Source: Takakia lepidozioides
Lineage: Eukaryota > Plantae > Bryophyta
Direction: 5' to 3'
Length of the DNA: 64,000 nucleotides
Assembly (NCBI GenBank): GCA_030704615.1
Contig: CM060732.1
Span: 26,474,001-26,538,000 of the forward strand
The translations under genes and the position numbers were made by a program. The notes beneath the pieces were generated by a model, which was not told where the DNA came from, did not search any database, and saw only the letters and a list, made by a program, of their open reading frames with translations. Positions 1,020 through 43,111 of the stretch are shown one piece after another. The stretch's first letter is position 1. Every line of letters starts with the position of its first letter.

Positions 1020-1460
1020 GGCCCAGCTGCCGCGCTTGCGGCAGCTCCCCCATGCCCGCAGTCCGCCGCGGTCGGTCCGCTGAGCCAGTCCCCTCACGTC
1101 CACTCTGCCAGTCTGCCCGCCAGTCCGCTGCCCATGAGTCCGCTTCCCTCTAGTCTGCCCGTCCACCAGTACGCTGGTGGGCGTTCCCTGAGCCAGTCCG
1201 ACGACGACGCCCGATCTGGGCCATCCATCTCAAAACCCATCCAAGCCCTCCATTTTTAGGGCCTAAACCCTGCGACCAAATCCGGCCTGTCTCTACTGAG
1301 GGCTCGTTGTTGTCCGATGTTGCGGTAGGCGTTTCCATGCACGCCCGTCTTCTTTTTGTGCACGAGCGACGTTCATGATGATGAGGGGTGTGCTTGAACA
1401 TGGCAGGACTGGCGGGGCGGGCTCTACAGTCACCATCATGCATATGCTTCCACTATTTTT
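1020..1460 (+). repeat. GC-rich dispersed repeat, diverged inverted copy of ~13400-13830
   Basis: Blocks such as TCTGCCAGTCTGCCCGCCAGTCCGCT, CCAGTACGCTGGTGG and GCCCTCCA.TTTTAGGGC match the reverse complement of 13605-13780. Confidence 0.7.
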
Positions 1461-1579
1461 GCCTGTTTGTTGTGCTTTACGGAATCTTGGGCTTTGTGAT
1501 ATGGTTGTATGTTAGAAATATGCTACTGCCTTATCTGTCTTCCATATCGTCATCTGCTTCTGATCCCTCATGATACGCT

Positions 1580-1757
1580 TGTCGTGCACATACATATCAC
1601 TACACAACTACATTGCTGTCCAAAACCACACAACACATGTGCACACCACACACTAGTATACCACTAGTCCACCACTAGTCCAGCCATTAGTCCAACCACT
1701 AGGCTGTCACTAGTCAGTCTCTAGGCCGCCCACTATGGCAGTCACTAGTCCACCACA
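1580..1757 (-). repeat. Putative 3' LTR (~178 bp) of the DNMT-carrying Ty3/gypsy element
   Basis: On the minus strand it starts TGTGGTGGAC and ends GTGCACGACA (TG..CA, 8/10 terminal inverted match). It directly follows a purine tract (AGGGGGGCGAT, ~1758-1768) downstream of the pol stop. No second LTR was found in the window. Confidence 0.65.
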
Positions 1758-2009
1758 ATCGCCCCCCTAGCTAGGTGCTTAGGTCCTTCTGGTAGCCACA
1801 AGATGTGATAGTGACTGTAGCCTCACTAAGTCCTCCACCACTGTCCCTACTACACTCAAATTCGATAGATCAAGAGGCCGTACAAGAGTTGCCCCATCGT
1901 TAGTCGTCGTCTTGCAACCGGTGAACTTAAGCCTGTGATCTCGTGTATTGACTCCTATGAGTTTGGCCTCCCATGTCTTGTTAGTTGTCTCTAGTCATGT
2001 CCACTGCCA

Positions 2010-2160
2010 CTATCCCAAGCAATGTGGACACAACCAATCTTCATCAGGAACCTTCTCAAGAGGTGGTGTCAAGCATCCCATGTGCCAACTTCTTGAGCAT
2101 CGATCACACACCAGCATGGTGGCTGCCCCTTTGGCAGACCCACAGAGCATGCACCTCAAA
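2010..2160 (-). pseudogene. PHD finger at the C-terminus of the gypsy integrase
   Basis: CMLC...MLVCDRCSRSWHMGCLTPPLEKVPDEDWLCPHC is a canonical C4-H-C3 PHD; it is frameshifted from the integrase ORF at ~2240. Confidence 0.9.
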
Positions 2161-2233
2161 TCTGGAAGGTAACACTGCCATGTTTGGGTCAAGTACTCTG
2201 CCATCGACATTGGGAAGGTGACATGGCGCACAA

Positions 2234-3330
2234 TTACGCACAATTACGCACATGGTCTTTCCAAGTGATGCCATCCCGACCCTCCAAGATCAGGACTCCT
2301 GAGGGCAACACCTCTCGAACCCTCAAAATAACACGCCCTGCAGTGACATCCAGGGTCGTAGGATCAGTCTGCTGCAAATAAACATAGTCACCAGGGCTAA
2401 GCCTCCGAACCCCATGACGATATCCTCCACCACATATAGTGGCATACCTCAATGTATCACAGTGCTGTGCGATGGCAAGGTTTTCAAAAGATATGGGCAT
2501 GACTTTCTTGAACAACTCTGCACGCTGATCACATGCACGTACCCACACGTCCGGATCGTCAAGGTTAAGGACTTGAGCAATGTCCCTATGAATGGCTACA
2601 GACAAATCCGGCTCTCGGCCAAAGAGAAGAAAATATGGTGAGAAGGAGGCAAGTGATGCTTGCTTGCTGAACCGGTAGCCCATGGCTAACCAAGGTACCT
2701 GAAGATCCCAATCTCCTAGGTGTCCCTTCTGCAAGCCATACTTGCGCAAACCCCTCTTCACCGTCTGAACAACTCTCTCTGCCAAGCCATTGGCCTCAGG
2801 ATGATCCCGAGAAGTGGTGCGGTGGTCTATCAAGGCTTTATCACACAAAGCCTGAAACTCCCCCAAGAACTCTCTTCCTTGGTCCGTGAGTACCTCAGCT
2901 GGAGCACCGAATCGGTTAAGCACACGATCCAAGAATGCATACGCAGCCCCCTCACTAGCTTTGTCAGGCAATGGAACCAACTCAATTCACTTGGAGAAGT
3001 ACTCCACCATCACCAACACATATTTGTGGTGGCGCATAGTCAGTGGCAACGGTCCTGCGAAGTCAAGACTCCACCTGTAGCCCAATCCCATGATTGGTAA
3101 AGGATGCAACTGTGGTATAGGGGTGTTGAATGAAGCACGCACCCTGTCACACACCATGCACCTAGCCACGAACTGTTGCACCTCTGTATGCATACCACGC
3201 CACCAATACTGCCCCTGCAGTAAACTGTGAGTGCGTCGCACTCCAAAATGCCCCAACTCCTCATGGGCATGCCGCACTAACCGTGCACGCTGTGTTGGGT
3301 GAGGCACAATCCTCACCCTACCATCCTCCC
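2234..3330 (-). pseudogene. Gypsy integrase (HHCC zinc finger + DDE core)
   Basis: HEELGHFG...CMVC; WSLDFAGPLP, VLTDQGREF, HPEANGLAER; one in-frame stop at ~2987. Confidence 0.93.
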
Positions 3331-3617
3331 ACACTCGAAGCAGGTGTATCCCCTCCCACTTGAACCTCTTGGCTCGTTGCAGGATCCGATCCCTCTCCCT
3401 GGCAGTCACAGTGGCTGCCGTATCTCCCGTGCGGAGATAGTCCAACACAGCCGAATCCTCATGTATATCTCTAGCACCACCTGGCTCATCACTAGCCTCA
3501 GGGTCCTCAGACACTCCGTCTACAGTCATCCCTGTTGTAGGTCCAACCTGACCTCTCGATGCCAAGATACACAAAAAGACAGATGCATGCTATTCTGACA
3601 CCATCTCCTCGTCCGTC

Positions 3618-4982
3618 TCACCATGCCACCGATCCAGTGTCATCCTGTTGGCTCGTGCATGGATTGCAACTCAATCCATCCGCATCCCTATTGACCAAAC
3701 CCGGTCGATACACAACCTGAAGTATGAGTGCCCACCGTGCAAGCTTCCCTGTAAGTTTGTCTGACTCCATCAACCACTTGAGTGGCTGGTGATCCGTGAC
3801 AAGGGTGAAGAGATTGCCATATAGATAGCACCTGAAGTGTGTCACGGCCCACACTGCAGCTAAGCACTCTCCCTCATATGAGCTGTACTTAGCCTCTGCA
3901 GCGTTGTTTGAGCGGCTAGCATAAGCCACTACGACCTCTCTTCCCTCTTCATCCAGCTGTGTGAACACCGCTCCAAGCCCCAGCATGCTCCAATCCGTAT
4001 GCAGCTGAAAGGGACGCCCCCTGATAGGTCGTCTTAGGATAGACGCCAAGGTCAACCTTGCCTTGAGCTCTTGAAAAGCTCGTTCCTGCTCATCTTCCCA
4101 CTGCCATTCCCGGTCCACCTTGGTCAGCTTGGTTAGAGCCTTTGCGATAACATTAAATCCCTTGACAAACCGTCTATAATAGTTTGCTAACCCCATGAAA
4201 GCTCGAACTCGGCTCACATCCGTGGGGCGTGGAATTTGTGCAATGGCCTCTGCTTTAGTCTGCTGTACCCCCAATCCTCCAGGATATATCATGTGACCCA
4301 GATACTCAATCTGGTTGTGGAAAAACTTGCACTTCCCCGGATGCAACTTCAATCCGTGTGCTCTCAAGCGCTCCAATACCACCTGAAGATCTCTCTCATG
4401 CTCTTCCACCGTAGCACTAAAGATGATGATGTCATATACGTAGCACCGAGCAAAGTCCACCCCTGCTAGAATTCTATCCATGACTCTCTGAAACTCTGCA
4501 GGACCGTTCTTAAGCCCAAATGGTAAGAACCGCCACTGATATAGACAATTTTTGCCGTGCTCATTGATCCCCCAGAATATCGTCTTCTGCTTGTCCGCCT
4601 CCTTGATCGGCAACTGGTGATATCCGGATCGTAAATCCAAAGTGCTAAAGACCTTAGCATCCCCGATGGCATCAAAGATCTCCTCTGGTGTTGGCATGAC
4701 ATACTTATCGGACTTGGTCTGACAATTTACAGGCCGGTAATCACCGCACATACGTCTCTCCATCCAATTGCCATAGACATCCTTCTTGGCTGGCATCACT
4801 GTGGCTGAAGCATACTCTCCACCAGAGAGCTCCACCAAACCAGCCTCCCAGAGATCTTGAGTCCTCATCTGAATCAAAGCCCTCTCCATGTCACTGTATC
4901 TATAGGGTCTCCGAAAGATTGGCGTGTCAGTGGCCAACTCAATACGAATCTCTTGACCCTTCAGTGCTCCCAAGTCCTTCAA
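3618..4982 (-). pseudogene. Gypsy reverse transcriptase + RNase H
   Basis: RMCGDYRPVN, FSTLDLRSGYHQ, LPFGLKNGPAEFQR; the YxDD motif reads YVYD (~4431-4443). RNase H motifs LHTDWS, YEGECLA, TDHQPL. Confidence 0.95.
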
Positions 4983-5453
4983 ACTGAAGGCAAAGCAATT
5001 CCTATAAGCCCTCAGGAACCGCCGTATACGTCGTCTCTCTCCTCCGGTGATAATGGGTCAAATGTCAGGCTCCCAATTGTCCTCCGTAACTGCAACCTTA
5101 AGTCCAGTGGGCTTAGAGGTAGAGGACGCGTCCAGTGGTTGTTATGTTGCAACCTCTTGAGCAGTACTCTCTACCTGCTCAGTCAATGACAAGGCCTCAT
5201 CCTGCCCCATCATCTCATCCTCGAAGACTTCCTCAACCCGAGAAAAATCCCCAACCTCATCCATCACCGCCACCTTGGCTGCCAACTCCCTCTGAACCTC
5301 GAGCACCTCCCAGGTGTGCCATGGATGTCTGCACCCCGTGGTCCTCACATGCTCGCCTCCACTCACTGTCTGTACCGTCTCGGTAGGCAGAGAAACCATC
5401 AAGGGAAGTGTATTCCGCACTCTGCGTTGCTCAGCCATAGCCAAGCTGATAAT

Positions 5454-7700
5454 CTAGGTCAAGCAATTGAGATCCATTGCTTGCCCCAACACCTGATGAC
5501 GTGATGCCTCAGAAAGAGACGGCACTGCCGTGGTACCAGTGGTAAAACCCATCGCCCGCTCACGCTCGTCAGCATTAGGCTCCACTAATTGCTGTAACTG
5601 AGCATCCCACAGGAGGTCAGGTCCACTATCCCGGAAAGCATGCGATCCTGGGAAGCTGAGCAGTGTGGGTAATGCTGCTCGTGGTTGATCCACCTTGTTG
5701 ACCACTGCCAAAAGCGAACGGTCATTGTGTCTTACACGCTGAGACTGTCTCCCTGTGTCCAAAATGCTATCCACTGTGAGGTGTGCTGGCCGTTGCATCC
5801 CATCAAATGCACGCTTGAGTAGTGCGGGTGGCATCAAGTTACTCCACCATAGCCGTGGACGATGAGCCCGTGATCCCACTACAGCTACATCCAACAACAC
5901 TGCACCCAAGCCACGACCGGACTTGATGCACACTAGCGATAACCCTGGCCCGAGAATCGCCCATCAGTGACACATTCTCTAAGATGTATGCTGGAGATAC
6001 AGCTTGATGAAGCTACAACGCAAAACCCGCACCATCTCCCAAAACAGACCCGACCTTGAGTCTCGCAATCCATTGTCATGCCCGGCTGATGAATGCCCTT
6101 GGCAGGGCCAACCTGCCACTATCAGATCAATGGAGCCAACCCGCTCCAAATCCTGCGCCCCCAGCAATGAAATGTCTGCTAGTAAGGCCTGCTGATATCC
6201 ACGAACCGCAGACACCGGCAACAACTCAGGGTACTGCTAGTCCGTGAGTGACTCACGTGAGCGGAAAGATGCATAAGCGGGAAGATGTCAATCCGTGAGC
6301 GGGAAGATGCTCACGTAATAGGGTGCATAGGCCTACAATCGCGGATGAGGAGGCCCCGTGAGACCTATTTCCGCGGGAATGAGTGTACATATCATGCGTA
6401 CTTGGATGAATGTTGGATGAATGATGGATAAATAATTCATGAATGGTTGAATGCGAGATGGCTGATGGATAGACATATGCTTCGCAATGCATGAACAATG
6501 GATAAGTGGATGGTTAAAGACTGGATGTATTATCGAGGGTCATCGCTCAGGTACTTCCCCGAAATGAGGATATGGTAGATGTACCTGAACCATACATTCA
6601 GAAAACACAGATGCAGCGGGTGCTTGTTAATTCCCATTAAACCCCCTTGTAATCAATGTCGCGTTGATGCAAGGTTGATCCATGAACTTCCCAAAAGACT
6701 AGAAGACACGAAACACTAAGCAAGACGAAGATTTATTTCCCGAAAGAGACGATTGAAATCCATAGCATAATCAAGGTTGCGTAAACGCAACCTTGATTGT
6801 GTCCCATACAAAATGCAAAAAATAGTGTCAAAATGATGCTTTCATTTCTCAAATCAAGGTTGCGTCAACGCAAGGTTGATTTGCCCATACAAAATGCAAA
6901 AAACAGTGCAAAAATGATGTTTTTTTTTTTTTTTTTTTGGAAAAATGATGCTTTCATTTCTCATATCAACCTTGCGTTGACGCAAGGTTGATTTGCATGA
7001 CCCCAAAATATAATAATAATAATAATAATAAAAACCGCGAAAAAAAAAAATCGTAGGATGCAAATCAACTTTGCGTTGACACAACCTTGATTTGAGAAAT
7101 GAAAGCATCCTTTAATAAATTTTATAAATAAAAAAATAAAAATAAAAATAAAAACCATAATCATCCACTTCCACTCGGAAATCAACCTCGCGTTGACACA
7201 ATGTTGATTTCAAGTTCTCCGAAATTAACCTCATGTTGCTGTCATCCATGCTTTATTCATCTATCTTTTATCATCCTGCATTCATCCTACATTCATCCAT
7301 TCCACATAGCCATTAATCCTTAAGAATTTCGTCACACATTCCTCTCAAATTTTCATGCATGGAACTCGACGTCTTAGGTCCCATGCATCGTATGTTACCC
7401 TCCGTTCCACTCAACATTGCCCCAACGACAATAAGTCCTGCTTTTCCCACGGCTATAGGCTCCGCTTCCCTTATGTGCTCATGCTTAAGAAATCTGCTCA
7501 CGCTTAAGGGATCTGCTCACGCTTAGTGCGCTAAGCGTGAGCGCGCTCACACGCTAGCTTCCCTCTGGAGCAATATGACAAAGTGAAACGCGTCGTGCAG
7601 TCTCATCCCTCTCCACATACAGGTAACGCCGAACTCGCACACCTGCCTGTAACACCGCAACTAACCGCCAAACAAGTCCAGAAGACAAATGCCTTCATCC
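5454..7700 (-). pseudogene. DNMT3-like C5 cytosine DNA methyltransferase domain inside pol, split by the insertion at 6240-7554
   Basis: Motif I LLDLFGG (~7664-7684), II RYLYVERD, IV DLIVAGWPCQG (GWPCQ 6099-6113), VI YILENV (ENV 5971-5979), VIII AHRPRLWWSN, IX ERERAMGF, X LGQAMD, all in canonical order. Confidence 0.9.
6240..7554. mobile_element. Non-autonomous insertion at GCTAGC (TA duplicated) with an internal palindrome array
   Basis: Flanks read gcTA|GTCCGTGAG ... CTCACACGC|TAgc. Removing it rejoins the DNMT coding sequence. It holds about six ~30-bp palindromes of type AATCAAGGTTGCGTnnACGCAACCTTGATT (6650-7210). Confidence 0.8.
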
Positions 7701-8039
7701 GGATACTGCCATACAATAGGTGTGGTGTCCAATGGAGACAATTGAGGTGGTCCTGGTGCAATCCCCGCACTCTCCTCCTCTCCTGATGGTACAAAAGCCT
7801 CTACCCAGGCTTGTTGCACCCATCGATCAGCAACCTGCTGCAAATCCTTGCTCGTGCCCCACAATGGAGTCTGAGCAATTATGGCAGACGACTCCGCCAT
7901 ATCATATATATCATCCTGCTCTCCCGGAGGTGACACATCCTCTGAATGAGCGTTGCCCTCAAGCAACTCTCTAGGCCAACTCACTGCAGCTGTGAATGCT
8001 ACTAGTGTCGACATCTTACCTCGCTGGGCAATCACAACT

Positions 8040-8470
8040 CCTCATATGAATGTCACAGGGAGCTGCACACGCCGGCCCTCCCCTGACTGCCATCCAGGCA
8101 TATATGAAGCTGACTCCTCCCAAAAATCCAGGGTGAAGCCCATGGGGTACAACACTACCCCACCAACCAGGACACTGCGTCTGTCACAATGGCCTTGGCT
8201 CGCATCACTGAGCCATCTGTAGGGTGATCCGGCCGTAGTCTAATAGCCAACTCACGCCGTGTCATGCCCCGAGCCTGCTCCGATCCTCCCAGAGATGTAT
8301 GTATCTGGAAATGACAAGGCTCCATATCCGCCTCCGTGAAGCCCAAGCCTGCAATAGCAGCTCTGCCCAGCATCAATGGCTGAGCTATCGAGTCCAACAA
8401 GACTCATAGTGGCAAGTATCTCTTGCCTGCCGGTCCACTCAAACAGAAAATGTCATCCTGGTTGTCTAAC
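8040..8470 (-). pseudogene. Retroviral-type aspartic protease of the gypsy element
   Basis: VLLDSIAQPLMLG (second copy VLLDSRAQPLMLG, a degenerate DSG) followed by the D.L.G..LYPMGF C-terminal motif. Confidence 0.75.
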
Positions 8471-8879
8471 ATGACAACCCCAGGTATCACCATGGCGCGC
8501 TCAATGGCTGGCCTAGTTGGCAGCTCCGCCAACCTGGCAGCTGCAGCTTGCCATGGCGCCGCCGTGGCAGTCTTGATCCTCACATCCGAGGATCCCTCCG
8601 TCACTACACCTCCCACTATCTCCGCAGAAGATGAAGTAACCTCCCCACTCTCACAGAGTGTAACTGCCAGCCTGAACACCTCAGCTGGTCTTACCCCCAG
8701 CGTCGCAATCATGATAGCCGAGAACAATGGAGCCTGACACACAGATATGGCCGCCCCCAGCAGTACACTAGCTGCCGTAGCCTTGGCAGCAGGTAGTGGT
8801 GCTGCCCGTGTGGCTCTCCCCAATGGCACAGTAATCTCCGCCTCGGTAGCAGTCGGGCGAGAACTAGGTACCATGGATT

Positions 8880-11000
8880 CTCCTTGCAACCCACCGAAGC
8901 GCTCTTTTTGGGTGGCGTGGTCCACCTCTACAGTACATGAGATCTCCCATATCCTTCAACAAGTTTGCAGCGGTGGTAGGATCCTTTGTTTTCTTGCATG
9001 ATTACTTTGCCCAAGCCTTGCGGACATGCCAAAGGCACATGAATATGAGTACTCTGTCAAAAACAATTATGCACAATACATATGTGCATATTAGACTCTT
9101 GAGAGGGGACTGCACCAGTGGACTGTACCTGCGGCGGCGAGTATGAGTGGACTGGACCAGCGGACAGACAGAATGGAGTGTCTTACTAGACAGTACCATG
9201 CAATGACCTTCACAGGACGACTAAGCAGGAGGAGTATCGAGGACCTCTGTCCAGTGTACTTCCCCGACAGACTGTATCGGCGAACTGTATCAGTAGACTG
9301 TACCAGCGGACTGCAGCAGTGGACTAACTTTCTGCACTATCCAGTGGACTGACCCAGTGGACAATACAATGCACTCCAATGCACATCCACTACAAGGATG
9401 GCTGACCCATTTCCCATTACCAAAAGAACTTCTCAGTGGACTTCCGCGTTAGGATGTTCCAGCAGACTGTATGAGCGGACTGCGAGCAAACTGCCACTGG
9501 ACTGCCAGCGGACTAGTCTATAGCAATGGACTGGCATTGTGGACTTCAACAATGGACCGGCGTTGTGAGACAGCAGACTTACCGAATTGCGTTAATTTCT
9601 GCTTCGGCATCGTCCACAATGAAGGCATTGGGTCGTCAGTTAGGCATAGCTCCGAGGAGTGAATCGCGCAAGGCTACCATCCACGGCACCAGGTCAGTGG
9701 TCCGATTCCTTGCGGATATGATATAGGCAACTGGTATACCGTTCAACCACTCATCAAACACCATCAACGTGTACAATGGGAACTGTTCGAATGACAGATG
9801 GTCAGAGCATGCAAAGTCTGACAAATTGTGCACGACAAGACTCGGTTTTTCGCAGAGTACACATGAAAACATACATAGAGGATCAGCGATGGCACACACA
9901 ATTTCTACGCCAATGTTGCATGGTACTATGCTATGCTGCTCCCACAAGTCCATGGAATCGAATGAATAATACGTCATGATTTGTTCCAAAGGTTGCATCG
10001 CATGCAACGATGCGGGCATGTCCTAATTCCAACATTCGTCGTTTTTGCCAAGGAGTCTGAATGCGGCCTATTGTGAAGGTCAAATCACCATCAAAATGCT
10101 TGTATGTTGGCGCCAAAGTTTCTTCTTGATAGAAGAAGACGGACTTCGGATTTTGGTCTTTCCACATACGTACACTCTCGGCATCATCGGCGTGCTTTTT
10201 GAAGGTTAACCACGCCCGCTTCTCGGCTAGGTTGCGGACATCTTGCTCCAAAATGAAATCATCTCGTGTCCATGCATCTCCCAACCCAGTGTTGTTCATG
10301 ACGTGCTCTTTATGTTCCATCATGATTTGGGCGACAGACAGGCCTCGGCACAAACATTCGACGACCCAGGCTTTCAATTCCTCACTAATGTGTGGTGCAT
10401 AGGCGTGGCGGGTGTTCCTGAATTCCGCCGACTTCCCATGCGAGGCTTTCTCTTTGGTGTCTGTATGCTCCATGTTGTTGTACACATATGTCGAGGACGA
10501 GGTAGCTTTGCTAGACCTTGAAACAGCATTGGCAACCACGCTTGTAAGACTCTCCATACTCCGACTTTTTTCTCTTTGGGCCTTTATGAGGGTGAGATGT
10601 TCCAGCACCCACAAGAGATCCTCCTCGCTTCACTTTTAGATCCTCCACTATTGCAATGTTGGTGCGCTTGTCATCCGGACCGTAGCAGCATTGATAAGTG
10701 GACATAAAATTCGAAATCGGTATCCATCCACTTCTGCAAGCATGAAATCACATGCGAAACAAAAATGGCAACACACATGCAATGATTGTACAAAAGGACG
10801 TGAGGATGGTGCACACATGGTACTGTTCAGGAATGTGTTGCCTCTGGGCTCTTTTCGCATGCCGGGTTCCACTTTAGTATGGACACTAACCCAAAACTGA
10901 GTGGGGTAGTCTACCAAACTCTCATCTCCAAGGATAAAGTGATCAACTCTATCCCAAGGTAAGCAGACCTTCTAAACATTCACTCGCACACCCATATACC
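8880..11000 (-). pseudogene. MULE-type transposase of the At1g60560 / SWIM-protein class, intron-containing, 3' truncated
   Basis: YQCCYGPDD, APHISEELK, RDDFILEQDVRN, IQTPWQ...IVACDATFGTN, PLYTLMVFD..NGIPVAYII, PNAFIVDDAEAEINAIR, CLWHVRKAW; contains stops and frameshifts. Confidence 0.8.
9105..9560 (+). repeat. Degenerate short-motif repeat (CAGTGGACT/CAGCGGACT) within an intron of the MULE gene
   Basis: Many irregularly spaced copies of (C)AG(T/C)GGACT between the GT donor at ~9580 and the next exon at ~9065. Confidence 0.65.
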
Positions 11001-11055: not shown

Positions 11056-12367
11056 CGGCGTGAGCCCAGCCCCGTGAGCCTGGGATCTAAGCTCACGCTT
11101 GGCTCACGTGGCGTCAGCCCAGGCTCCATATGCATGATGTGGCGTTCACGCCACGTAAGCGTGAGCGTCCGCCACGTCAGCAAATGTCATAACACATTTG
11201 ACGAAAGATAAGATACCTATACCCGAGGGACCTATAACCGTAGGAATACGCATTTACAATATGCCGACTTGTGCTGCATATTCCAAACAAACCGACAATG
11301 AAAAGAGACTCATTGACTACAACGATGTGCAGTCTGCCAACTTGAGCTGCATATTGCAAACAAACCGACATTTAAACGACACCCGTCTGGGTTCACTTCC
11401 CCTTCCCTTTTCCTTTGCCTCTCCCCTCATCTGCAAGTCCATTTTTATCTTTCGAGGAGAGCCGGTGTACTTGTCAGGTTGCGTGTGTGAGATGCAGCTG
11501 CAGAAAAAAAAAAAAACCATGTGCGGGATGGGCAGCTGCAAAAAAAAAAATGCACCGCAGGTACCCTAAAAGTAGTGTGCGGCACCGCACACTACTTTCA
11601 GGGCATCTGCGTGGGAAGGAAAAAAAAACAAAACGTGTGTGGGATGGGCAGCTGCATAGAAACAAAAACACCGCAAATGCCCTGAAAACAGTGTGCGGTG
11701 CCGCACACTGTTTTTCGGGCATCAGCGTGGGACAGAAAAATAAAAATAATAAAAATAATAAAACCGTGTGTGGGATGGGCATATGTAGAGAAAACGTGCT
11801 CCGCAGATGTCCTGAAAACAGTGTGCGGGTGCGCCACACTATTTTCCGGGCAGCTGTGAAGGAACGAAAAAACGAAAAAATGAAAAAAAAACTCCTGTGG
11901 GATGGCCATTTGCACAGAAAACATGCTCCGCAGAAGCCCTGGAAACACCGCACACTATTTTCCAAGCATCTGCGAGGGAACGAAAAAACCAAAAAAAAAA
12001 AACAAAACGTGTGTGGGATGGGCAGCTGCATAGAAACAAAAACACCGCAAATGCCCTGAAAACAGTGTGCGGTGCCGCACACTATTTTCCGGGCATCTGT
12101 GTGGAAAAAAAAAAAAAAAAAAAAACCTTATCTGGGATGGGCATCTGCAGAGAAAACGTTCACCACGATGCCCTGAAAACAGTGTGCGGTGCCCGCACAC
12201 TATTTTTCGGGCATCAGCGTGGGAAAGAAAAATAAAAATAAATAAATAAATAAATAACCGTGTGTAGGATGGGCATATGTAGAGAAAACGTGCTCCGCAG
12301 ATGCCCTGAAAACAGTGTGCAGTGCGCCACACTGTTTTCCGGGCAGCTGTGAAAGAACGAAAAAATG

Positions 12368-12402
<35 letters not shown>

Positions 12403-13343
12403 CTGTGGGATGGCCATTTGCACAGAAAACATGCTCCGCAGAAGCCCTGGAAACACCGCACACTGTTCTCCAGGCATCTGCGAGGGAACGTCAAAAAAAA
12501 AAAAAAAAAAAAAAAAAACTTTTGTGTGGGTTGGGCATTTGCAGAGAAAATGTGCTCCGCAGATGCCCTAAAAACAGTGTGCGGTGCCGCACACTGTTTT
12601 CAGGGTATCTGCGTGGGATCGAAAAAAATATAAAAATAAAATGTGTGGGGTGGGCAGCTGCAGAGAAAACGTGCACCGCAGATGCCCCGAAAGGAGTGTG
12701 CGGTGCCGCACACTACTTTCATGACATCTTCGTGGGAACAAAAAAAACAAAACGTGTGTGGGTGCCACAAACTACTTTTCAGGCATCTGCGGGGGAACCT
12801 GCCAAAAGTGCATTCGCTTGTGTCAAGTCAAAACGCATACATTGATTTCATCCCGACCATCCCGCAGAATGTTTCATTCAAATACAATGACATTCATCCA
12901 TTTCCAAACATGCAAGGGCTTAGTATGTACACCACATCTAAATTACACTATTCCATGTGGGCGATTTTCACATGTCCAAGCCTCAACTCTACTCCGCTAA
13001 CTTTTGGGTCTGGGGATCTGCACTGTAAGCTGCTGTTACGTTTGGATTGGTAAGAAAGCTTCATGTAACCAACACCCTCATTCTCTCTCACTTCGGCAAT
13101 TGAACACTAATCAAATCGTTGTTTTATGACATGAGGGCCGGGGGGTGGGATGGATAGGCATTCATGGGGCGACGTTTGATGGATTCGTAAAAAGACGTTA
13201 TCTGCAATGACTGAAAATGGTACGTCAATGCACGGCTATAGGCGCCTCCCGCGGAAATACGCCCTGTAAGTTCGGAATTCATAGATGACGTGGCGTGCGC
13301 CTATGCTGGGCTCATGGGCTCCTGGGCTCACAGGCTCACGATG
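11056..13343. mobile_element. Non-autonomous insertion at GCTAGC (TA duplicated) carrying a tandem hairpin array
   Basis: Flanks read gcTA|CGGCGTGAGCC ... GGCTCACGATG|TAgc, with GTGAGCC subterminal repeats inverted at both ends. Confidence 0.7.
11490..12795. repeat. Tandem array of ~11 units (~110-130 bp), each with a ~55-bp palindrome and poly-A spacer
   Basis: Unit core GCAGATGCCCTGAAAACAGTGTGCGG-TG-CCGCACACTGTTTTCAGGGCATCTGC; variant units recur at 11631/12004, 11764/12258 and 11891/12399. Confidence 0.9.
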
Positions 13344-14097
13344 TAGCAACCCCCTTATTAAAGGGTCGTGGTTTTGGTGTTTGCAAACATTGTCGAAGAG
13401 GCTGTATTAGCGGGCTTTCCGTTTCCAGTATGTCATGGCCTTCTGCTTGCATGTCCATGCCCTGTACAGTACAGAGGACACGCTTCAAAACCTGCAAGAA
13501 ACGCGCCGCAGTACCCTGGACACGATCGACAACGTGCAAGGAGCAACAATGCGCACATTTGCGGCTGCTGGCAAGTGCCAGGCGGCAGGGATAAGGTTTC
13601 AATTCATGCCCTAAAATTGGAGGGCTCAGATGGGATTTAGGCAGGGACGGTCCAGATCCGGCCTTGTTAGCGGACTGGAAGTTGGGGGACTGGCGCAGCG
13701 GACTGGCCACCAGCGTACTGGCCGGCAGACTGGCGGACGGGCAGACTGGAGGGAAGCGGACTGGCGGGCAGGCTGGCAGAGTGGACATGAGGGGATGGCT
13801 TAGCGGACCGGCCGCGGCGGACTGGGGGCGCGGGGGGAGCTGCCGCGGGCGCGGCGGGGGGGGGGGGGGGAGCCGGGCGTCCATGCGCGGGGCCCACCGC
13901 TCAGCTTGCACGTGCGCCATAACAACGCTAATATTATAAAATGAGAGGCATTTTTTCCATGTCCTTTTAATGCAAACTCCAAGGCTTCCTTTCTGGGGCT
14001 TGGTGCTTGATACCGTTGGAAAGCCTTGGACGAGGAGGGGTGCATGGGCTTGGTCTCATAATTTTTGGACCTGCGGTGTGGAAGATGTGGAATAATT

Positions 14098-17918: not shown

Positions 17919-19697
17919 ATGGGCAGCTTGGTGGGATCGCCTATGCCAGATTCTCCTTCCCCCATTTATCGTCATCGGACGCATCCCAGGATAACACGAA
18001 CGTTCGGAGGTAGTTTTTGTGCTTCAAATCACATCACACGGTTGAAGGAATAAAGAGGAAGAAGAAGGGAGCCTCTGACTGTTGAGTTTGGATGGGAAAA
18101 GTTTACTGAAATCCAATTTGTAATCAAATTCTATGTATGTGAGAGAGACAGAGTATTTGGGGGATATAAATTCATCGCGCTAGGGAGGATTTTTGGTCTT
18201 CGTTGACAGGGAAAAGGCCTATGATTTCGAACCCCTTTTTATGCTTAGATCTTTGCTGTTAGAGCTATGGTGAGATGAATGGCAAGAAATTTGGGGGGAT
18301 TGAGAGTGCATAGGTCAAGAAAGAAAGAAACTTTATCTGTCCATAAGGGTGCATGAGTGCGCATAGGACAAGGAAAGGAGAAGACCAGGTGTCATGTTTA
18401 CCAACTTTGGGTGCTGGAGTTAGAAGAAAGAGATGTCCTTGGTTTGTCTCCCACATTGCATGAAAGGAGGGTCATTGAACATGGTGTTTGGCTAGTCAGG
18501 GGTTTTCACTGCTTTGGAAGATACTCAAGGTAGATTTTGGAGAAGGAAACTGTGGATCTTACTGGAGAAATGTATTACTCACTGTTCCATCTTGAAACAT
18601 CGGTAGAACAAATTTTCCTTGTGTTCCTCCATACCCTCCTGTGCATTTGCCATGTTGAAGCTAATTGTATTGGTGTAATCTGGCCTGAGTATATTGGGAC
18701 CCCTCCTTTAACTCAAACAATCTTTTGCAGACATTCATTTGTGACAGGTACATCTCCTTCACCTATGTTCATAGGAGGCTTGGCCATGGGGCTATGTTAA
18801 AAAATCTGCAACCATAGGCTTTATGTGTAATAAATAAACTGACGTTTCTGGAGTGGATAGGCAGGGAAACTTGGCAAGCTGACGTTTCAAGGTGTCTTCT
18901 CCACTAAATGTACCACTTTAGAATGGATTTGACAGCCAGATCTCAACTCAGTGGTAATTTTAACCCTCCAGTTTCATCACATATGACACAGATTGCTGTG
19001 GGATCTCAGTACAGGACTGTTGTGAAACAAGTATCTAGCCAGTGGTGACATTGAAAGGTTTATTGAGGTAAGGCCCCTCAGTAAAATAGACAGTATAAGT
19101 TAGAATATTGAAAAGCTTCTTGAAAACTCTCCACCCAAAGTAGGAGGCACCTAATTATACACCCCTGGTATGACGGGTTGTACTGCCCAGTTGAATTAGC
19201 AGTGATAGTTTAGTTTTCAGTTCAGGGGTATTGCATACCAAATTATTTTGGGTGGTAAGCGCAGCATTTGAAAAATTAGTCTTGCCTTTGCAGGTATCGA
19301 GTGCTCAGCCATGCAGCCTCGATTACAATTCGTGCTGAAGATGGTGGTGGCAGCATCGTTTACTGGCACTTGCATGGTCATTCTTCGTCAATCATCTCAT
19401 GGCTCCATTGATTCAGTAAGTGCTCCCTCTGTGTTCCTATCTGTCTGGCAGATATGCCAAGTAGAATGATGAGATTTTTGTGGTCTTCACGGATTTTCTG
19501 TCTTTCTTCTTTCTAGTTCATGTTCTCAACCTACTGTTGTAAGAGTACCAAAGAGACTCGGTGAATGAAATGTGGCGTTGCAGTTTTCAAAGCGCGAAGA
19601 GGGGGTAATACACATGTTGGTGACAGGTGGGGCAGGCTATATTGGATCGCATGCTACGTTACACCTGCTAGAAGATGGCCACCGAGTTACTATTGTG
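17919..19697 (+). pseudogene. UDP-arabinose 4-epimerase (MUR4/UXE-like), first three exons only
   Basis: Exons 17919-18009, 19294-19415 and 19584-19697 splice in phase at GT-AG. They give an N-terminal TM segment then [38 protein letters not shown]. The expected next exon (DNLSRGN-type) was not seen; a gypsy fragment starts ~70 bp into intron 3. Confidence 0.85.
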
Positions 19698-19769
19698 GTT
19701 TGCTACTTAGCTCTTCTCACTTTCTGAAAGAAATTACAAGCATTTTCTTCGAGGAGAACTAGAAATATA

Positions 19770-22700
19770 CCCCCAATGAATGTCACAGTGAGCTGTACAC
19801 GACGACCATCCCTTGACTGCCATCCAGGCCTGTAGGATGCTGACTCCTCCCAAAAATCCAGGGTGAAGCCCATGGGATACAACATTGCCCTACCAACGAG
19901 GACATCGTAAGAGACTGCGTCTGTTACAATGGCCTTGGCTCGCATCACTGAGCCATCTATATGATGATCCGGCTGTAGTCTAATGGCCAACTCACGCCGT
20001 GTCATGCCCCGAGCCTGCTCTGATCCTCCCAGAGATGTCTGTATCTGGAAAAGACAAGGTTCCATATCCACCTCTATGAGGTCCAAACCTGCAATAGCAG
20101 CTCTGCCCAACATCAGTGGCTGAGCTCTTGAGTCCAACAAGACCCGTAGTGGCCGGTGCCTCTTGCATGCCGATCCACTCAAAGAGAAAATGTCATCCTG
20201 GTTGTCTAACAAGACAACTCCAGGTGTCACCATGGCGCGCTCAAAGGCTGGCCTAGCTGGCAGCTCCGTCAACCTGGCAGCTGTAGCTTACCAGGGCGCA
20301 GCCGTGGCAGTCTTGACTTTCAAATCCGAGGATCCCTTTGCCACTACACCTTCTACTAACTCCGCAGAAGATGAAATGACATCCCCACTCTCACAGAGTG
20401 TTGCTGCTAGTCTGAACACTGCAGCTGGTCTTACCCCCGGCGTCGCAATCATGGTTGCTGAGAACAGTGGGGCCTGACACACAAAACTGGCCGCCCCCAA
20501 TAACACACTGGCTGCACTAGCCTTGGCAGCAGGTGTCAGTGCTGCACGTGTAGCTCTCCTCAATGACACAATAACGGCCTTTGCTTCGGTATCCGTCGGG
20601 TGAGAACTAGGTACCATGGATGTCGTCGACCCTGTCTCCGTCAAGATGAATGATTGAGGCAACCTAGCCTGACAGCTTGCCTCCCCACGCTGTGGATCCA
20701 ACTCCACCTCTGCACCTCGTGGCTCAGGAACTCGTGTTGTTCCTCGAGTGACGGCTGCAGCAGACTCCACCTACACTAGTGGTAGTGCTGCCCCACACAT
20801 AAATCTCATGTCTCATATGTCTCCTCCGTCAAGATGACGCTGCTGAGGAGGAACATGAGGTGGACCCTCAGGTTTTGGAGCTGGTACCACCTGAGTTATG
20901 GCCATGGCAGCAAGCCTTTGCTCTAGCTGCTGAAGCCGGTTGGCCATGCCTTGGTCAACGCCCTGACCTCTACGTCCTTGGCCACACTGTGCTTGGCTTC
21001 GTCCTGCACCTTGTGCCTGACCACCTCGTGCTCTTTGAGGTGCTCCACCTCGCCCCCGGCCACCATTATTCCATTGGAACTGGCCTCGCCGCAACGCCCA
21101 TACTTGCCACAATGCCCACACTGCAACTGTGCAGGCTATGCTTGTGCCGGCCCTTTGCCACTCTCTGGGCAATCTTTCTTGACATGGGATCCTCTACATG
21201 TCCAATATACCACCCCTGGTTGCTGTTGGTCTGCCAAAGAAGCTATTGGCATCTGCACCTGAGGTCCCCTTTAAGCTCCATGGAATTTGGGTTGGGCAAC
21301 CTTGCCCCCCTGACCATGTTGTTGGGCAGTCCCTTGTGCCTGTTAGCTGGCAGCTGCGCCTCGTGCAGGCATCTCCTTGCCAAATCCAATGGTAACAACT
21401 CGCTCCTCCACCATGTTGAGCTCAATCCGCTCAGCCAGCAGAAACACATCTGCTAATGTGGGTTGGGCCGCTTGTAACAGGATTGCATCCCGCATCCTTC
21501 TCCTGAGCTCCTTGTCCAAAATTCCATACCAGAACTGGACTACCTGAGCTTCAGTAACCCCTTGGGTTACACTTATCAAGCGCCTCATACGAGTGTAGCT
21601 AGGCCTCTCGCAAGCTCTCACTGGATTTGCGCTGGAAGTCTTGCAAACTTCGCACCTTCTCTGTCCGTATGCCTTGGTAGTTCCTCCGCAACTCCTGGAA
21701 GAACTCCACCACCGGGTTGAATCTAGGCACATGTGTTGTAGTCGTGGCAGGAGAAGTGGTAGCACCTTTCGAACTGATATCACCTGCAGAAGTACCGGCA
21801 CACCTTGTTCCACTACTAGTACTGGCAGTGGAGATATTGGTGCTGATGCAGCTACTGGTCGCGTCGTGCCTCGAGTAATGGAGACGTAGTCAGGTGACCA
21901 ATATATCCTCCACTCCTCAATCTCTGCTTCATGTCCTCGCCCGAACTCGTGGTAATCGTCCATAGGCGGACATTCCAAATGCTGGAACAGTCCGTTCCAC
22001 TCCATGAATGGCCCGGTGAACAGCTGTGGATTGCGCATCTACTGCAAATCACACCAACTGTCGAATTTTTGGATAACATCCATCTCGATTGTGCCCACAG
22101 CTCCAGAGTACCTACGAGGCCCCTTGGTAGCTCCATACATCTCCTCCATGTCGTCCCACAACAATGGTGAAGAAAACTGCACACCGTAGCTGCGTGTGGC
22201 CATCAACACTCCTACTTTGCCGTGTCATCTTCTCTTGTAATATGAACTGACACAATACGAGACTTTGCAATCAACTGCTCACGTGCGGCAAAATGGAAAC
22301 TTGCCTTGCCTTGCCTATACCCATGCCAGTACCGTGTTTATCCGCTGGCTCACAGTGCAATGTGGCATGGTAGACCTGCATCCTCTCATGCCCATCCTCT
22401 CGGCGTCCTTGCCAAGCTAACCCATAAGCACGATAACCGCTTCTCATTCGGCCTTCACTACTCGCACACCATACATATGTTCAGAATAAGTTTGAGTTCC
22501 TACTGTCACCACCAACCAAAACTAGGAGCCCTCAACCAAAACTAGAAGCCCTCCTCTCATCGCTATGCTTCCCATGACCATCTATATACCCAAAAACCAG
22601 AGATGATCGAAACCTGCATGTTTTTTTTTTGTTTTTTTTTTAAAAAGCTTTTCAAACTAAGCACTACTTACACACATGTAATCATACAAGTGCTAACCCT

Positions 22701-31415: not shown

Positions 31416-34294
31416 TCACTCGCACAAGGAAAAGAGCATGAAAAAGCAGCCCCACCCACCTGCCCTCTGCAAACAGGCAACATGATCCACATATTTGGAT
31501 GTCCAAAAGGCAGAGAAGTGATCCCAACATGACAAGCAGCATAGATTTCCTTAATTTGCATCATCCATAATCAGACCTATTGCATCATCTAATGTAACAC
31601 AATTACCCTAAGAGGGTCATGCTTAGGGCTGAGGTTGCAACAGCAGGGAATAAGATTGAAGAGCTATAACTTGTCTTACGCTCCTCCATCGAACTCCAGC
31701 TCTTGGTTTACCATGGGTCCTCTACATCCTGGCCAGTTTGTGCTTAACCTTCCTGGTAGTTAATAGAACTGACCCTGAGCTGCTGCATAACACCTCTGGT
31801 GAAGAGCATAGAAATTAAGGATATAAAAGGTAACGACTCTGAACTCACCAACTCTCCCTGTTCTTATCTTTTGCCTCACGCTCGTACTTCTGAATAGTGC
31901 GTTCATCCACCATGTTGCTCAAATACAGGATCTGACCTCCAATGGTTGACTTCCCAGCATCTGCAGTGCAGCCAATTGCATATCAGGTACTTCCCTTAGC
32001 AAGAAATTCTGCAGCTCTACAACAACAGGTTGGGTCAAGTCCATCTTGCAGTAACCTCCACACATCCACAATAACATGGTAAGACCTGAACCAATGGTTT
32101 TTATGTCTTTAGGATACCACTCTGTCATTTTGTGGGGAAAGAATTGGCCTGCTACAAGGAAGCACTTTGAATAAGACCCCTGGTCAAGTGGGTATGTTGG
32201 TCACGATCATCATCATCCCGAGCAAACAAATTCCATGAACCATGCGCAATGGGGAATCTGCTTACCAACATGCCCGATAAACACAACATTGAGGTGTTGC
32301 CGCGTATCAATATCTTCCTCCAATGCCTCAGCAGGCTTGTCCCTTGAATCCAATTCATGACCTCGATCCTCAAGCTCTTCATCTGCACTCCCAACTATTC
32401 AGGATGTGAAGAAAAATCAGGATACCAACTGCAAGTGCAATCTACAATGAGCTCCAGCAGACAGCTCTGTTTGCTGACACTTCATAATCTCTCCTTCTAG
32501 ACTCTTTTAGGATACATAACATGCTTTACTTCCAATGATATCGTAACAAAATAATCGTGCCTCATGTCTGCAACTAAACATGCTCGCCAACTTCAACTTC
32601 AAACGCTTTGTAAAGCATTGGATGCAGGTACCTTGACAAAATCTATGCAAAAACTGAACATCCAAACATTCAGTGTGTTGATCAGAAAATCAAAATACAA
32701 CCTTGAAATGCAATCTATGATGAGCCCCAGAGGACACGCATGTTTATTGATCATTTTGATCTCTAGACTTATGTTACTCAAACTTTGTCGGGGTAAATTG
32801 TATGCTTTACTTTCAATGTTGTCTGGAACTAAACAACCGTGCCTGATGTCCACAACGAAACACCTGCGCCGCCTTGCAAAGCATTGGAAGTAAAGCTCTG
32901 ACAGAAGCCAGTACAACTCCGAGAATGATAGCTAGTAGTTGAGGTAAACTGTTAGTCATATAATCAGTTGTAAGAGCAAGAGCTGGCTCAAGTGTTCCTC
33001 AACTGTGCCATAGTCCATTGATCCACTAATACTAAGGTCCAAGTACACATCCACTGCAAGACTTCACCAGATGTGCCGGTAAGGTATGGACTCCAATTAC
33101 CTTGGACAGGCTTGGGATCTTTAATCTCCAGTGCAGCCAATTCAGCCACGCTGTCAACCTCATGGTCTGCATCAAAAGCAGACTACTCAGATACTAATCA
33201 GCAAAAGTCAATTACATCATCAACGTATGCTGGTCACAATCTCAAATCCTCTCGTAATTGGAACCATACACAGTCTCCATTGCTCTCAAGTAGTTTGGCA
33301 AACATCTTTCCTAGAAGATAGCAAGCAAGTCATTTACCCGTATAATTTTCAAAATATCTCCGTACTTACAATTAAAGGTAACCAATAGAAAAGTACTGAG
33401 AAGATCTGATCCATGGTTAGAGGGATATTCAGCAGAGAAACCAGAAACAAACAGCAAATGAAAGAAAAACAGAGACAAGAAGTAAGCAAATCAGCACATT
33501 CAGAGTTCCATCCGATAGAGACCTAGGCAAATAGAACGCAAAGAATTTTCTTAGAGAAGCAACTCACAAACTAGCAACGATATCTTTCACCTCCAAACAA
33601 CAGCATGATGTGCCGAATTCAACAGCTGCTAAGCGGTGAATGACGGACTCCATCACGCAGAGCCCGATGTTTGGACATCACTCTCTCAGATCAAAGCCTA
33701 TCCCCTCATTCACACCATACATAAAAAACAGAACTGTCGGTTGTCGCCAAGGGTAAACACCGTAAGTCAGTACATACCCTCAACGGGGCCGTTATTCTGC
33801 GATGCGTCCTCCGCCTCGATCTTATCCTCTGCCTCCTTCTCAACTTCAATAGCATCCTCCTTTTGGGAATCTATAATCAGGACCTTATCCTCCACCTTAT
33901 GAGATGCAAGAGGCTCAGAAACAGCAATGGAGGATCCTACAGCCGCAGGCGGGGCATTCGAGTTCACACCACCCATAGCCGCCAAGGCTGATGCACCCGA
34001 AACAAATGGAGTATCGAAAGCAGGGCGATTCCCTGAACCAGGGTTTGCCGCAAGAAATGGGGGGACAGTGGCTGGTGCAGCGTGCACAGCCAAAGGGGCT
34101 GGACAGTCAGGTATATCTGCAGATGCGATGTCATGCACAGGTTTAGGGTGGAAGGGAGTGAAAGATGCTGCCGATGGATTAAATCTAAAGGAAGGCGCAT
34201 TTGCATTCAGCTTTGCTCCTGCAGCCGGAGCCGCATCCGTCCGTACTGGTGCCCCTCCCTCTTCCATGTCCTCCCAGGAATCTGGCTCCGCCAT
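26598..34294 (-). CDS. eRF3: Eukaryotic peptide chain release factor GTP-binding subunit eRF3 (SUP35/GSPT), about 16 coding exons
   Basis: Exons encode HLNVVFIGHVD/AGKSTIGG, YMAYIMDTNEEERAK, GKTVEVGRAHFET..FTILDAP, GHKNYVPNMISGASQAD, GEFETGFERGGQTREH, VVNKMDD, FPQLGRFTLRDE and GKTVAIGKV. ATG at 34294, TGA at 26598-26600. Confidence 0.95.
31365..31415. repeat. Compound (CT)n(CA)n microsatellite in an eRF3 intron
   Basis: Read directly from the sequence. Confidence 0.95.
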
Positions 34295-34899
34295 GGCGTG
34301 CCCGTGTGCAATCGATGGCAAGCAGCAGCAGCGATCGCTAGCGCTCTTGAAGAAGAAGGGAACTACTTACGCCTTGAGCTTCTCTTCCCTTTAGGGTTTA
34401 CTCCTTGTCCCCTCTTCTCTCTACCTTCTCATATTAGATGTACCCTATTCTTGTACCTATTGCCTATATAGGTGTCAAGAGCTATTTTATTTTTTATTTT
34501 TTTAAACGATTAAAATCTATATAAATGTAGTAACACCGTCCTAGACGGACATAGGACGATCAGTAACTGAAATAGAAAAATAGAAAACAATTATGGGTGA
34601 AGGCTATTTTTTCCTTGCTCTTTTTGTTGGCTCCTCAAAAAGGGAGAGACCACGCATTGGTGCCAAAAATGAGTAAGATCCTGATATACCTCCACTAGAT
34701 AGTACCTACATGAAGCACATAACCCTCCCCCACTTAAATATTAACTTGAATGTACCTTGACTGGATAAGACCCAAACATGAATCTTACATATGTAAATAT
34801 TCATAAATAAAGACCCATAAATAAAGGGTATATAGTATAGGTATATGGATAGACATACAGTATTTATATTTTCCTATGTTTCTACGTTTCTACCTCTGT

Positions 34900-42100: not shown

Positions 42101-43111
42101 CACTGGAGGAACGATTGCCGGCATTTCGCGGTATCTTAAGGTACATACATTTTTCTCACTTTACCAAGGTTGCATTTCCATGGCCCCATGTGCTTACTTT
42201 GCTTAGTCATGGTGGACTATCAACATCTTTACAAGGCTCCCAACCAGATTTGTTGTTTTAGTCACAAATATGATAAACATAATTTCCAGGCACAGTTGGG
42301 TGCTAGGACTTCCCTTTGACAAATATCAGGGGATAGACTGATCAGTATTGAGCCCCCAATACATGGCTGGATCAGAGCTCTTGTGTTAACACATGCTTGC
42401 TCAATTTTGTTGCAGGAGCAAAATCGAGATCTGAAATGCTACTTGATAGACCCCCCAGGCTCTGGACTATTCAACCGTGTGACTAGGGGTGTTATGTATA
42501 CTCGCGAGGAGGCAGAGGGCAAGCGCATGAAGAACCCTTTTGACACTATTACAGAAGGCATTGGCATCAACCGCATCACACAAAATTTCAAGCAAGCACA
42601 ACTGGATGGTGCATTTCGGGGCACTGATAGGGAGGCTGTCGAAATGGCACGGTAGAACTTGAACCCCCTCTCTTTCTCTCCTTGACCACTGCAAGAATTC
42701 CATGGAGCATTCAATGTTACAGATGTAGAAGAAATGGGAGGGGGAAAGGGTGTGAGAGAGTGTGAGGGTCTATCCATTTTCACCTCTTCAGATGTCTATA
42801 TTGGTTATTTGTATGTTCATTATTTGCACTATACACCGGCAAGTGTCTTTGTGTATACCAGATTTCTGCTGAAGAACGATGGGCTTTTTTTGGGGAGTTC
42901 ATCGGCAATGAATTGTGTAGGTGCAGTACGTGTGGCACGGCTGCTGGGTCCCGGGCAAACAATTGTGACCATTCTTTGTGATGGAGGAGCTCGCCACTTG
43001 AGCAAGTTCCACAACCCGGGGTACTTGGCTACACACGGGCTGATACCCACTGCAACAGGCCTTGAGTTTCTAGATGAGTCAAGCTCAGCACTTTCTGTTG
43101 CCAAGGTATGA
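39172..43111 (+). CDS. Cysteine synthase-like PLP-dependent enzyme (At1g55880 / fungal cysteine synthase 2 type), 6 exons, 580 aa
   Basis: Exons 39172-39465, 39755-39829, 40038-40181, 41397-42140, 42416-42651 and 42862-43111 splice in phase. Motifs IGNTPLI, NPGGSVKDR (PLP lysine), EGSAGSTG, DQFEN, AGTGGT, EGIG, LGSSS, TILCDGG; hydrophobic N-terminus. Confidence 0.93.

Follow-up and report, generated by a model that had tools for sequence, protein, structure and literature searches.

A Ty3/gypsy retrotransposon family of bryophytes with a DNMT3-type methylase and a conserved, likely readthrough stop, identified from a dead copy in Takakia lepidozioides

The window analysed here, a stretch of 64,000 nucleotides from the bryophyte Takakia lepidozioides (assembly GCA_030704615.1, contig CM060732.1, positions 26,474,001 to 26,538,000), carries on its minus strand, from about 8890 down to 1580, a retrotransposon copy composed of protease, linker, C5-methyltransferase, reverse transcriptase (RT), RNase H, integrase, PHD finger and terminal repeat. 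The order protease-RT-RNase H-integrase, with an RT of gypsy type, places it among Ty3/gypsy elements. This copy is dead: its gag is truncated, its RT motif reads YVYD, and it contains further stops and frameshifts. Comparison with its relatives leads us to lean, on balance, towards the view that it belongs to a high-copy family whose first frame encodes Gag, protease and a DNMT3-type methylase (DNMT), that this frame closes in a leaky TAG-CAA-CCN stop, and that the methylase, present at Gag-like numbers, likely methylates the element's cDNA before integration.

A DNMT3-type domain between protease and RT

An earlier note on this DNA had described C5-methyltransferase motifs lying in order on the pol strand between protease and RT, and all of them were located there on the minus strand (Table 1). 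The domain is broken, as that note had also said. The reading frame changes after motif I and on either side of motif VI, and a 1.3-kb insertion is present, although the limits given for it (6240-7556) were a few bases off: the insert comprises 1,312 bp (6241-7552) between copies of GCTAG at 6236-6240 and 7553-7557. In Logan contigs, whose depth is not the same as copy number, the summed depth of the insert is about 100-fold below that of the element, and one contig of run X2 joins 6235 directly to 7568 (among the 15 of 183 joints that were listed). A Helitron reading of the insert (5' TC, 3' hairpin, CTAG) was dropped because a 5-bp direct repeat flanks it. Six palindromic 32-bp repeats lie within it at 6650-7210, and further copies of the insert are present in the genome at low depth.

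Table 1. Features of the element in the window and of related polyproteins
Feature	Position or protein	Strand	Evidence
gag-region C-terminal part and aspartic protease	8150..8890	-	tblastn of relatives; motif LLDSIAQ at 8400-8380
Protease-methylase linker	7690..8150	-	collinear with relatives, 44-49% identity
DNMT motifs I and II, frameshift after motif I	7558..7690	-	motif positions: I LDLFGG 7681-7664; II YVERD 7619-7605
Secondary non-coding insertion	6241..7552	.	GCTAG 5-bp direct repeats on both sides; internal palindromic repeats
DNMT motifs IV (catalytic Cys), VI, VIII, target-recognition region, IX and X	5454..6236	-	PF00145, E 9e-12; IV GWPCQG 6113-6096; VI ILENV 5985-5971; VIII AHRPRLWWSN 5867-5838; IX ERERAMGF 5567-5544; X GQAMD 5486-5472
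Conserved in-frame stop and CAA CCA, likely readthrough signal	5136..5144	-	TAA in window copy; CARYYA consensus (PMC7026636)
RT and RNase H, Ty3/gypsy type	3618..5135	-	Pfam (RT E 6e-28, RNase H E 1e-34); best PDB match Ty3 RT, E 8e-64
Integrase: H2C2 zinc finger and DDE core	2234..3589	-	Pfam (E 9e-17)
PHD finger 3' of integrase	2019..2174	-	PF00628, E 2e-12
Purine run and terminal repeat B, likely element 3' end, GCACGACA	1580..1790	-	context and terminal letters as in Sphagnum-type loci
Second copy, separate and partial, with gag, protease and the beginning of the linker; ends short of the methylase	19775..22150	-	88-90% identical to 8046-8470
Chlorophyte gypsy polyproteins, DNMT3-like domain after RNase H	P0259, P0351, P0414, P0265

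The search with PF00145 that had been proposed as a check found its match at 5979-6236 in a Pfam scan of the window's open reading frames (ORFs); the other two DNMT-bearing ORFs scanned (5454-5963 and 7661-8041) gave no Pfam match alone. When the domain DNA was shuffled in dinucleotide blocks, 0 of 2000 shuffles contained three or four of four motif patterns, against four observed, the patterns having been picked after the sequence was seen. A structure model was built from a close intact relative, P0003, and not from the broken frame of the window. With the sequence of P0003, a PDB search ranked DNMT3A first (E 6e-12), followed by DNMT3B, DRM (1e-8 to 2e-4) and M.HhaI (4e-3). The model itself (pLDDT 89) retrieved DNMT3 chains exclusively among the Foldseek rows listed, and a wide structural search, VIA, gave DNMT3B at Z 27.8 (root-mean-square deviation 2.7, 278 aligned residues), M.MpeI at 24.5, M.HhaI at 21.6, DNMT2 at about 20-21, DNMT1 at 17.5 and DRM2 at 9.2 (deviation 2.2, 133 aligned). 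By sequence, and by the modelled fold of this relative, the methylase is thus assigned to the DNMT3 type. The circular permutation of DRM enzymes is absent, since motifs I to X stand in canonical order and DRM2 aligns across 133 residues only; the earlier proposal of a DNMT3-like, unpermuted enzyme that is not a DRM is supported. The C-terminal DUF3444 of host plant DNMT3 had no Pfam match in the window ORFs or the relatives scanned.

The window copy is truncated 5' of about 8890, and Logan contig depth drops from 8872 upward; at the other end depth falls below the bin of terminal repeat B. By the same measure, a stop in the RT region at 5060-5058 is private to the window copy among the rows listed.

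A conserved stop separates the methylase from RT

The stop at 5144-5142 has another character: as judged from the aligned relatives, it is a feature of the family and not of decay. In 42 of 53 rows it stands 83 codons upstream of the RT probe; the remaining rows are frameshifted, deleted or diverged. At this site 41 of 56 aligned loci read TAG, 13 TAA and one GAG (one is uncovered), and 51 of the 56 continue with CAACCCATG, giving the motif TAG-CAA-CCN. The surroundings of the stop fall into 44 distinct sequence contexts among 52 loci, and no stop of decay elsewhere is shared by more than 11 of 31 loci. The window copy has TAA CAA CCA at 5144-5136, and TAG makes up 99% of the contig depth there in the rows listed. 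The reading frame is held across the stop, over a gap of 507 or 570 nt. In run X12, possibly one of RNA, a single contig extends over 3361-5516 and hence over the stop, and 5584-6131 has no coverage; we draw no evidence from either. Proteins that end after the methylase domain do so at 80-84 residues in Calypogeia and in five cases from Marchantia, and at 87-146 in a distant group.

The earlier note had predicted a single open frame from protease through methylase, RT, RNase H and integrase to the PHD finger; the relatives show it split by the conserved stop after the methylase. The stop makes Gag-protease-DNMT the first frame, and RT-RNase H-integrase-PHD would then likely need readthrough. 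The codons CAA CCA match CARYYA, the readthrough consensus of tobacco mosaic virus (TMV) as given in PMC7026636, and CAA after UAG is described as required for readthrough in plant cells (PMC2754532).

The second frame might also be reached, with element and methylase role unchanged, if the AG of TAG served as a splice acceptor, or if translation re-initiated, or a second transcript started, at a nearby ATG; we regard this as unlikely. Sphagnum-type loci have the acceptor-like sequence TTTTTGC(A/G)TAG with CAACCCATGG after it, and an in-frame ATG is present in 53 of 56 loci; four Marchantia and Riccia gene models (P0016, P0011, P0006 and P0014) bridge the stop region. In the window family, however, the third codon past the stop is CTG or CGG and not ATG, which favours readthrough, the next methionine lies within RT, and the context upstream of the stop is not pyrimidine-rich. 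The junctions of the bridging gene models disagree among themselves, as work-arounds of a predictor would, and preservation of the frame over the 507- or 570-nt gap likewise counts against this route.

Family spread and selection on the methylase

A 169-residue C-terminal piece of the methylase (5454-5963) retrieved 81 longer proteins, among them Calypogeia fissa at 75% identity, 15 rows of Marchantia polymorpha, Riccia sorocarpa and two Sphagnum species, with most Marchantia proteins at 56-70%. Clustered at 50% identity, matches to the methylase piece at E values up to 0.001 form 698 clusters. For genomic context we used metagenome loci, the best 80 of 160 relatives, which match a Sphagnum jensenii protein at up to 97% identity. 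Since these loci were picked by their methylase, the set cannot reveal family members that lack it. Protease lies upstream in 48 of the 80 and RT downstream in 57, both are present in 33, and 13 contain the full run from gag to PHD finger; protease was not seen in 11 of the 57 loci with room upstream, nor RT in five listed loci with room downstream. Contig depth offers a less biased view: 60,264 contigs of run X1 of the source species map to 1200-9400, and they cover methylase and RT alike. The copy number of the family appears to be very high.

Of 72 loci, 68 retain the catalytic cysteine, and 74 of 77 retain the glutamate of motif VI; the two arginines of motif VIII are more eroded, with counts of 37 and 49 within the four most frequent states listed. 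Between the window and 64 Sphagnum-type loci, nonsynonymous divergence (dN) is 0.275 for DNMT, 0.206 for RT, 0.146 for RNase H, 0.190 for integrase, 0.381 for the linker and 0.427 for protease. Third positions of DNMT differ at 0.57 and second positions at 0.21 in this comparison, and its ratio of nonsynonymous to synonymous divergence (dN/dS) is about 0.1, with dS near saturation. These values indicate that the methylase is under purifying selection between lineages. Two points on which the earlier note had made its proposal depend, a ratio below 1 and presence of the domain in other family members, came out in its favour, the latter through a fixed position and spacing in dozens of loci.

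That the window holds a one-off captured fragment of a host DNMT3, or a neutral passenger, deserves hardly any credence. The window copy is broken at several places, as such a fragment might be. A one-off capture is nevertheless refuted by the fixed position and spacing, the purifying selection and the counts of protease and RT beside the methylase in the 80 loci. The 698 clusters also speak against it, and host DUF3444 occurs in 0 of 13 long matches that lack RT or integrase.

The earlier note had also allowed that the contig might not come from a land plant; it does. The host gene cysteine synthase 2 at 39200-43100 on the plus strand is intron-rich, and one of its exons, of 80 residues, matches Sphagnum balticum at 89% and Physcomitrium at 88% identity; in a tree of 23 rows the gene groups with these two genera at 89/74, short of the starred support level. 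The host is probably a moss. Scans of GTDB with P0041 and of IMG/VR with P0214 found no match, and scanning IMG/VR with alignment A1 gave only three distant matches at 27-33% identity.

Three annotated genes of Marchantia, Mp4g09160, Mp8g17980 and Mp6g11220 (P0005, P0010 and P0006), are ORF1 of this element family. Mp4g09160 keeps all motifs intact and has its methylase in frame with Gag and protease.

Element ends

In relatives of the window copy, the 5' end bears a repeat A of about 340 bp and the 3' end the series B-A-B, B being about 115 bp. The arrangement A...B-A-B is complete in L019, L060 and L062/L064, and its 3' B-A-B part is present in L017, L029 and L059. Ten other loci terminate after the first B and may have arisen by recombination between B copies. 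Two equal long terminal repeats were not seen, the relatives having either A...B-A-B or A...B. Their ends are mostly TGTCATG...CACGACA, and 4-bp target duplications flank six of seven full-length relative loci, at five of six independent sites. The duplicated letters (TACA, TGTG, TCTC, CATA, TGTT) differ from NCGN, the target preference given for Phygy (REXdb) in PMC6317226. The window copy retains only the 3' end, the purine run and B closing in GCACGACA at 1580, and repeat A was not found 5' of either window copy. Membership in DIRS/PAT, elements with a tyrosine recombinase and without target duplication, is contradicted by the DDE integrase of the window and the 4-bp duplications of the relatives. 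Split repeats together with integrase-type ends raise a separate question, that of the route of cDNA synthesis.

Two layouts in green plants

The methylase occupies one of two slots. In type A it lies between protease and RT, as in bryophytes, Klebsormidium nitens KFL_013780020 and Closterium, the latter two being represented by partial proteins without RT; in type B it lies between RNase H and integrase, as in the chlorophytes Haematococcus, Scenedesmus and Hariotina. Most rows of both layouts are metagenome proteins. Residues for S-adenosylmethionine binding and catalysis (FxG, PC, ENV, RxR) are conserved in bryophytes, Klebsormidium, Closterium and chlorophytes.

Trees of RT and of DNMT, both midpoint-rooted and built without host DNMT3, DRM or CMT rows, split alike between the layouts. 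The RT-RNase H tree (40 rows) sets 26 type B rows apart from 14 of type A at 100/98. The DNMT tree, of 54 chosen rows, divides the layouts with support of 89/93 and 90/93; two long rows stay outside, and one row that bears Dam is placed with type A. The window groups with liverwort and Sphagnum-like rows at 100/100, and P0355 (KFL_013780020) and every bryophyte row share one side of the tree (89/93), as far as a midpoint root without a host DNMT3 outgroup can place it. As a separate observation, the protein P0264 has, besides RT, both a Dam adenine methylase and a related DNMT domain, and may belong to a DIRS-like element with two methylases.

Other features of the window

Broken ORFs bearing the motif DATFGTN lie at 9636-10629 on the minus strand, with others at 1029-1262 and 13608-13855; they had no Pfam match, and we take them to resemble a Mutator-type transposase. 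A 250-bp inverted match of 75% may represent terminal repeats of the element bearing these ORFs, which would place the gypsy copy inside it. At 11500-12810 there is an array of units of about 120-130 bp with internal inverted repeats and poly-A tracts. A degenerate element resembling a long interspersed nuclear element (LINE), with endonuclease-, RT- and RNase H-like ORFs recognized by eye, occupies 47500-56500 on the minus strand, and a related fragment lies at 43900-45400 on the plus strand. Two further host genes are presumably represented by an eRF3-like N-terminus at 33767-34366 (minus strand) and a nucleotide-sugar epimerase-like exon at about 19615-19700 (plus strand).

Discussion

The conserved stop predicts an unusual expression logic, in which the methylase is made at the level of Gag while RT and integrase are rare. 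According to the reading that we favour, occasional readthrough would yield a minority of long RT-RNase H-integrase-PHD polyproteins, and particles would contain about as much methylase as Gag, far more than RT and integrase. Protease would release the enzyme inside the particle, where it would mark new cDNA before integration, and copies methylated in advance would then be mistaken for host DNA or else be silent from the moment they land. The PHD finger may steer integration toward silent chromatin. Its best PDB matches are CHD4, KDM5B/5A, UHRF1, ATXR5 and PHF21A, and PHD fingers of this type read unmethylated H3K4; of 57 element PHD fingers that match the search pattern, none has a tryptophan two places before the zinc-binding histidine.

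Several observations weigh against this account. In Sphagnum-type copies the stop is followed by CAA CCC ATG: the last base of the hexamer mismatches CARYYA, the ATG is in frame, and the U-rich run preceding the TAG could act as a splice acceptor. The lineages represented by P0202, P0240 and P0316 have no stop and a single frame, and the nine most diverged loci are too decayed for the stop to be visible. With dS saturated, the low ratio between lineages is approximate; among close decayed copies, dN/dS is higher for DNMT (0.56) than for RT (0.38), with integrase at 0.53 and the linker at 0.72, although a higher ratio is expected there from decay after insertion. CpG depletion does not single out the element, whose observed/expected value of 0.53-0.62 compares with 0.56 for the neighbouring LINE and 0.52 for the whole window. 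Finally, the gypsy domain of Klebsormidium produced no methylation in yeast, a result that its authors call inconclusive (PMC5890265).

The last two points would fit an alternative in which DNA methylation is not the main task of the domain: it would instead be retained for binding or as a structural part of the particle (binding cDNA or RNA, or shielding cytosines), or would methylate genomic RNA. Gag-level amounts of methylase would also be far above the need of two cDNA strands. We consider this rather unlikely. The FxG, PC, ENV and RxR residues are conserved across bryophytes, Klebsormidium, Closterium and chlorophytes, the modelled fold is closer to DNMT3 than to DNMT2 (Z 27.8 against 20-21), and the DNMT3 domains that DIRS elements of Symbiodinium carry show CG methylation activity in yeast (PMC5890265).

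We give less credence to a nuclear methylase acting in trans as a self-limiting or host-modifying factor, whose targets would be the integration site or other copies and host chromatin. An enzyme that is overproduced and released by protease might be free to do so, and in Marchantia met mutants transposable elements are de-repressed and their non-CG methylation rises, unexplained by known regulators (bioRxiv 10.1101/363937). The authors of that study favour a pathway like RNA-directed DNA methylation, however, and a link to these elements is speculative; methylation of transposable elements in Physcomitrium is accounted for by the host DNMT3 and CMT (PMC6453930).

To methylation of cDNA inside the particle, the reading that we prefer, a wider and more tentative one can be added, which we hold as a possibility. 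One ancient gypsy lineage may have carried an active DNMT3-type methylase through the green plants since before the chlorophyte/streptophyte split, with one move between slots; bryophyte elements would load the enzyme at Gag stoichiometry through the leaky stop and send out pre-methylated, PHD-steered copies, and de-repressed copies in Marchantia may add to host non-CG methylation.

Why a transposon should bear an enzyme of the class used in silencing has been an open question since 2018, and Symbiodinium and Klebsormidium are hard to manipulate. The intact frames of Marchantia polymorpha make the question testable in a CRISPR-tractable land plant. They also have a practical consequence, in that annotation of bryophyte genomes may count element frames in error among the methyltransferase genes of the host.

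Comparison with known systems

A literature search found no account of such elements in land plants or chlorophytes, nor of the stop, within a scope that left subscription papers, Repbase reports and theses mostly outside; supplements of the de Mendoza group from 2025/2026 may list land-plant copies. Gypsy-DNMT elements in streptophytes are referred to in later work (PMC12344493; bioRxiv 10.64898/2026.05.21.726589). The species table of PMC5890265 includes Physcomitrella and Selaginella and had no match for Marchantia or Sphagnum.

Among stand-alone enzymes, the host DNMT3 of Physcomitrium (PMC6453930) shares the DNMT3-type catalytic domain but differs in its C-terminal DUF3444, and DRM has permuted motifs where the element methylase is unpermuted. 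The stop resembles the UAG-CARYYA signal of TMV type, functional in plant cells (PMC7026636, PMC2754532), in being an in-frame amber stop followed by CAA and pyrimidines. It differs in following protease and methylase rather than gag and in the CAA CCC of Sphagnum-type copies, and readthrough here is a prediction.

SymbioDIRS-Dnmt3 and SymbioLINE-Dnmt of Symbiodinium (PMC5890265) are likewise retroelements with a C5 methylase, and the DIRS forms share the A-coding-B-A-B arrangement. They use tyrosine recombinase or LINE machinery, whereas the bryophyte family has a DDE integrase, TG...CA ends and 4-bp target duplications. The EpiLTRs/DAM-LTRs (bioRxiv 10.64898/2026.05.21.726589) are gypsy-like, combine DNA methylase with chromatin-reader domains and count green algae among their hosts; their DNMT, however, is sister to DNMT4 and accompanied by Dam and a chromodomain, and their authors separate them from streptophyte Gypsy-DNMT3.

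The closest likeness is to KnitGypsy-Dnmt3, whose methylase the authors of PMC5890265 regard as acquired independently in the lineage of K. nitens. It too has gypsy domains, an unpermuted, intronless Dnmt3-related domain and purifying selection, and the DIRS-like repeat arrangement in its Fig. 4c legend matches the A-coding-B-A-B of the bryophyte relatives. The K. nitens protein KFL_013780020 (P0355) has the order zinc knuckle-protease-DNMT of the bryophyte elements, although we do not assume that it is a copy of KnitGypsy-Dnmt3. The bryophyte family differs in its land-plant host and in the conserved stop: its methylase and RT share one frame with a stop between them, P0202 and P0240 have a single open frame, and the KnitGypsy domain is placed in the Pol ORF. 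It also has a PHD finger after integrase, a domain that the text of PMC5890265, figures aside, does not mention for KnitGypsy-Dnmt3. The element would work like KnitGypsy-Dnmt3 and may well share its descent. The kind of element is thus already known from Klebsormidium; what is added here is the conserved stop, the split repeats with target duplications in relatives, and the type B layout of chlorophytes.

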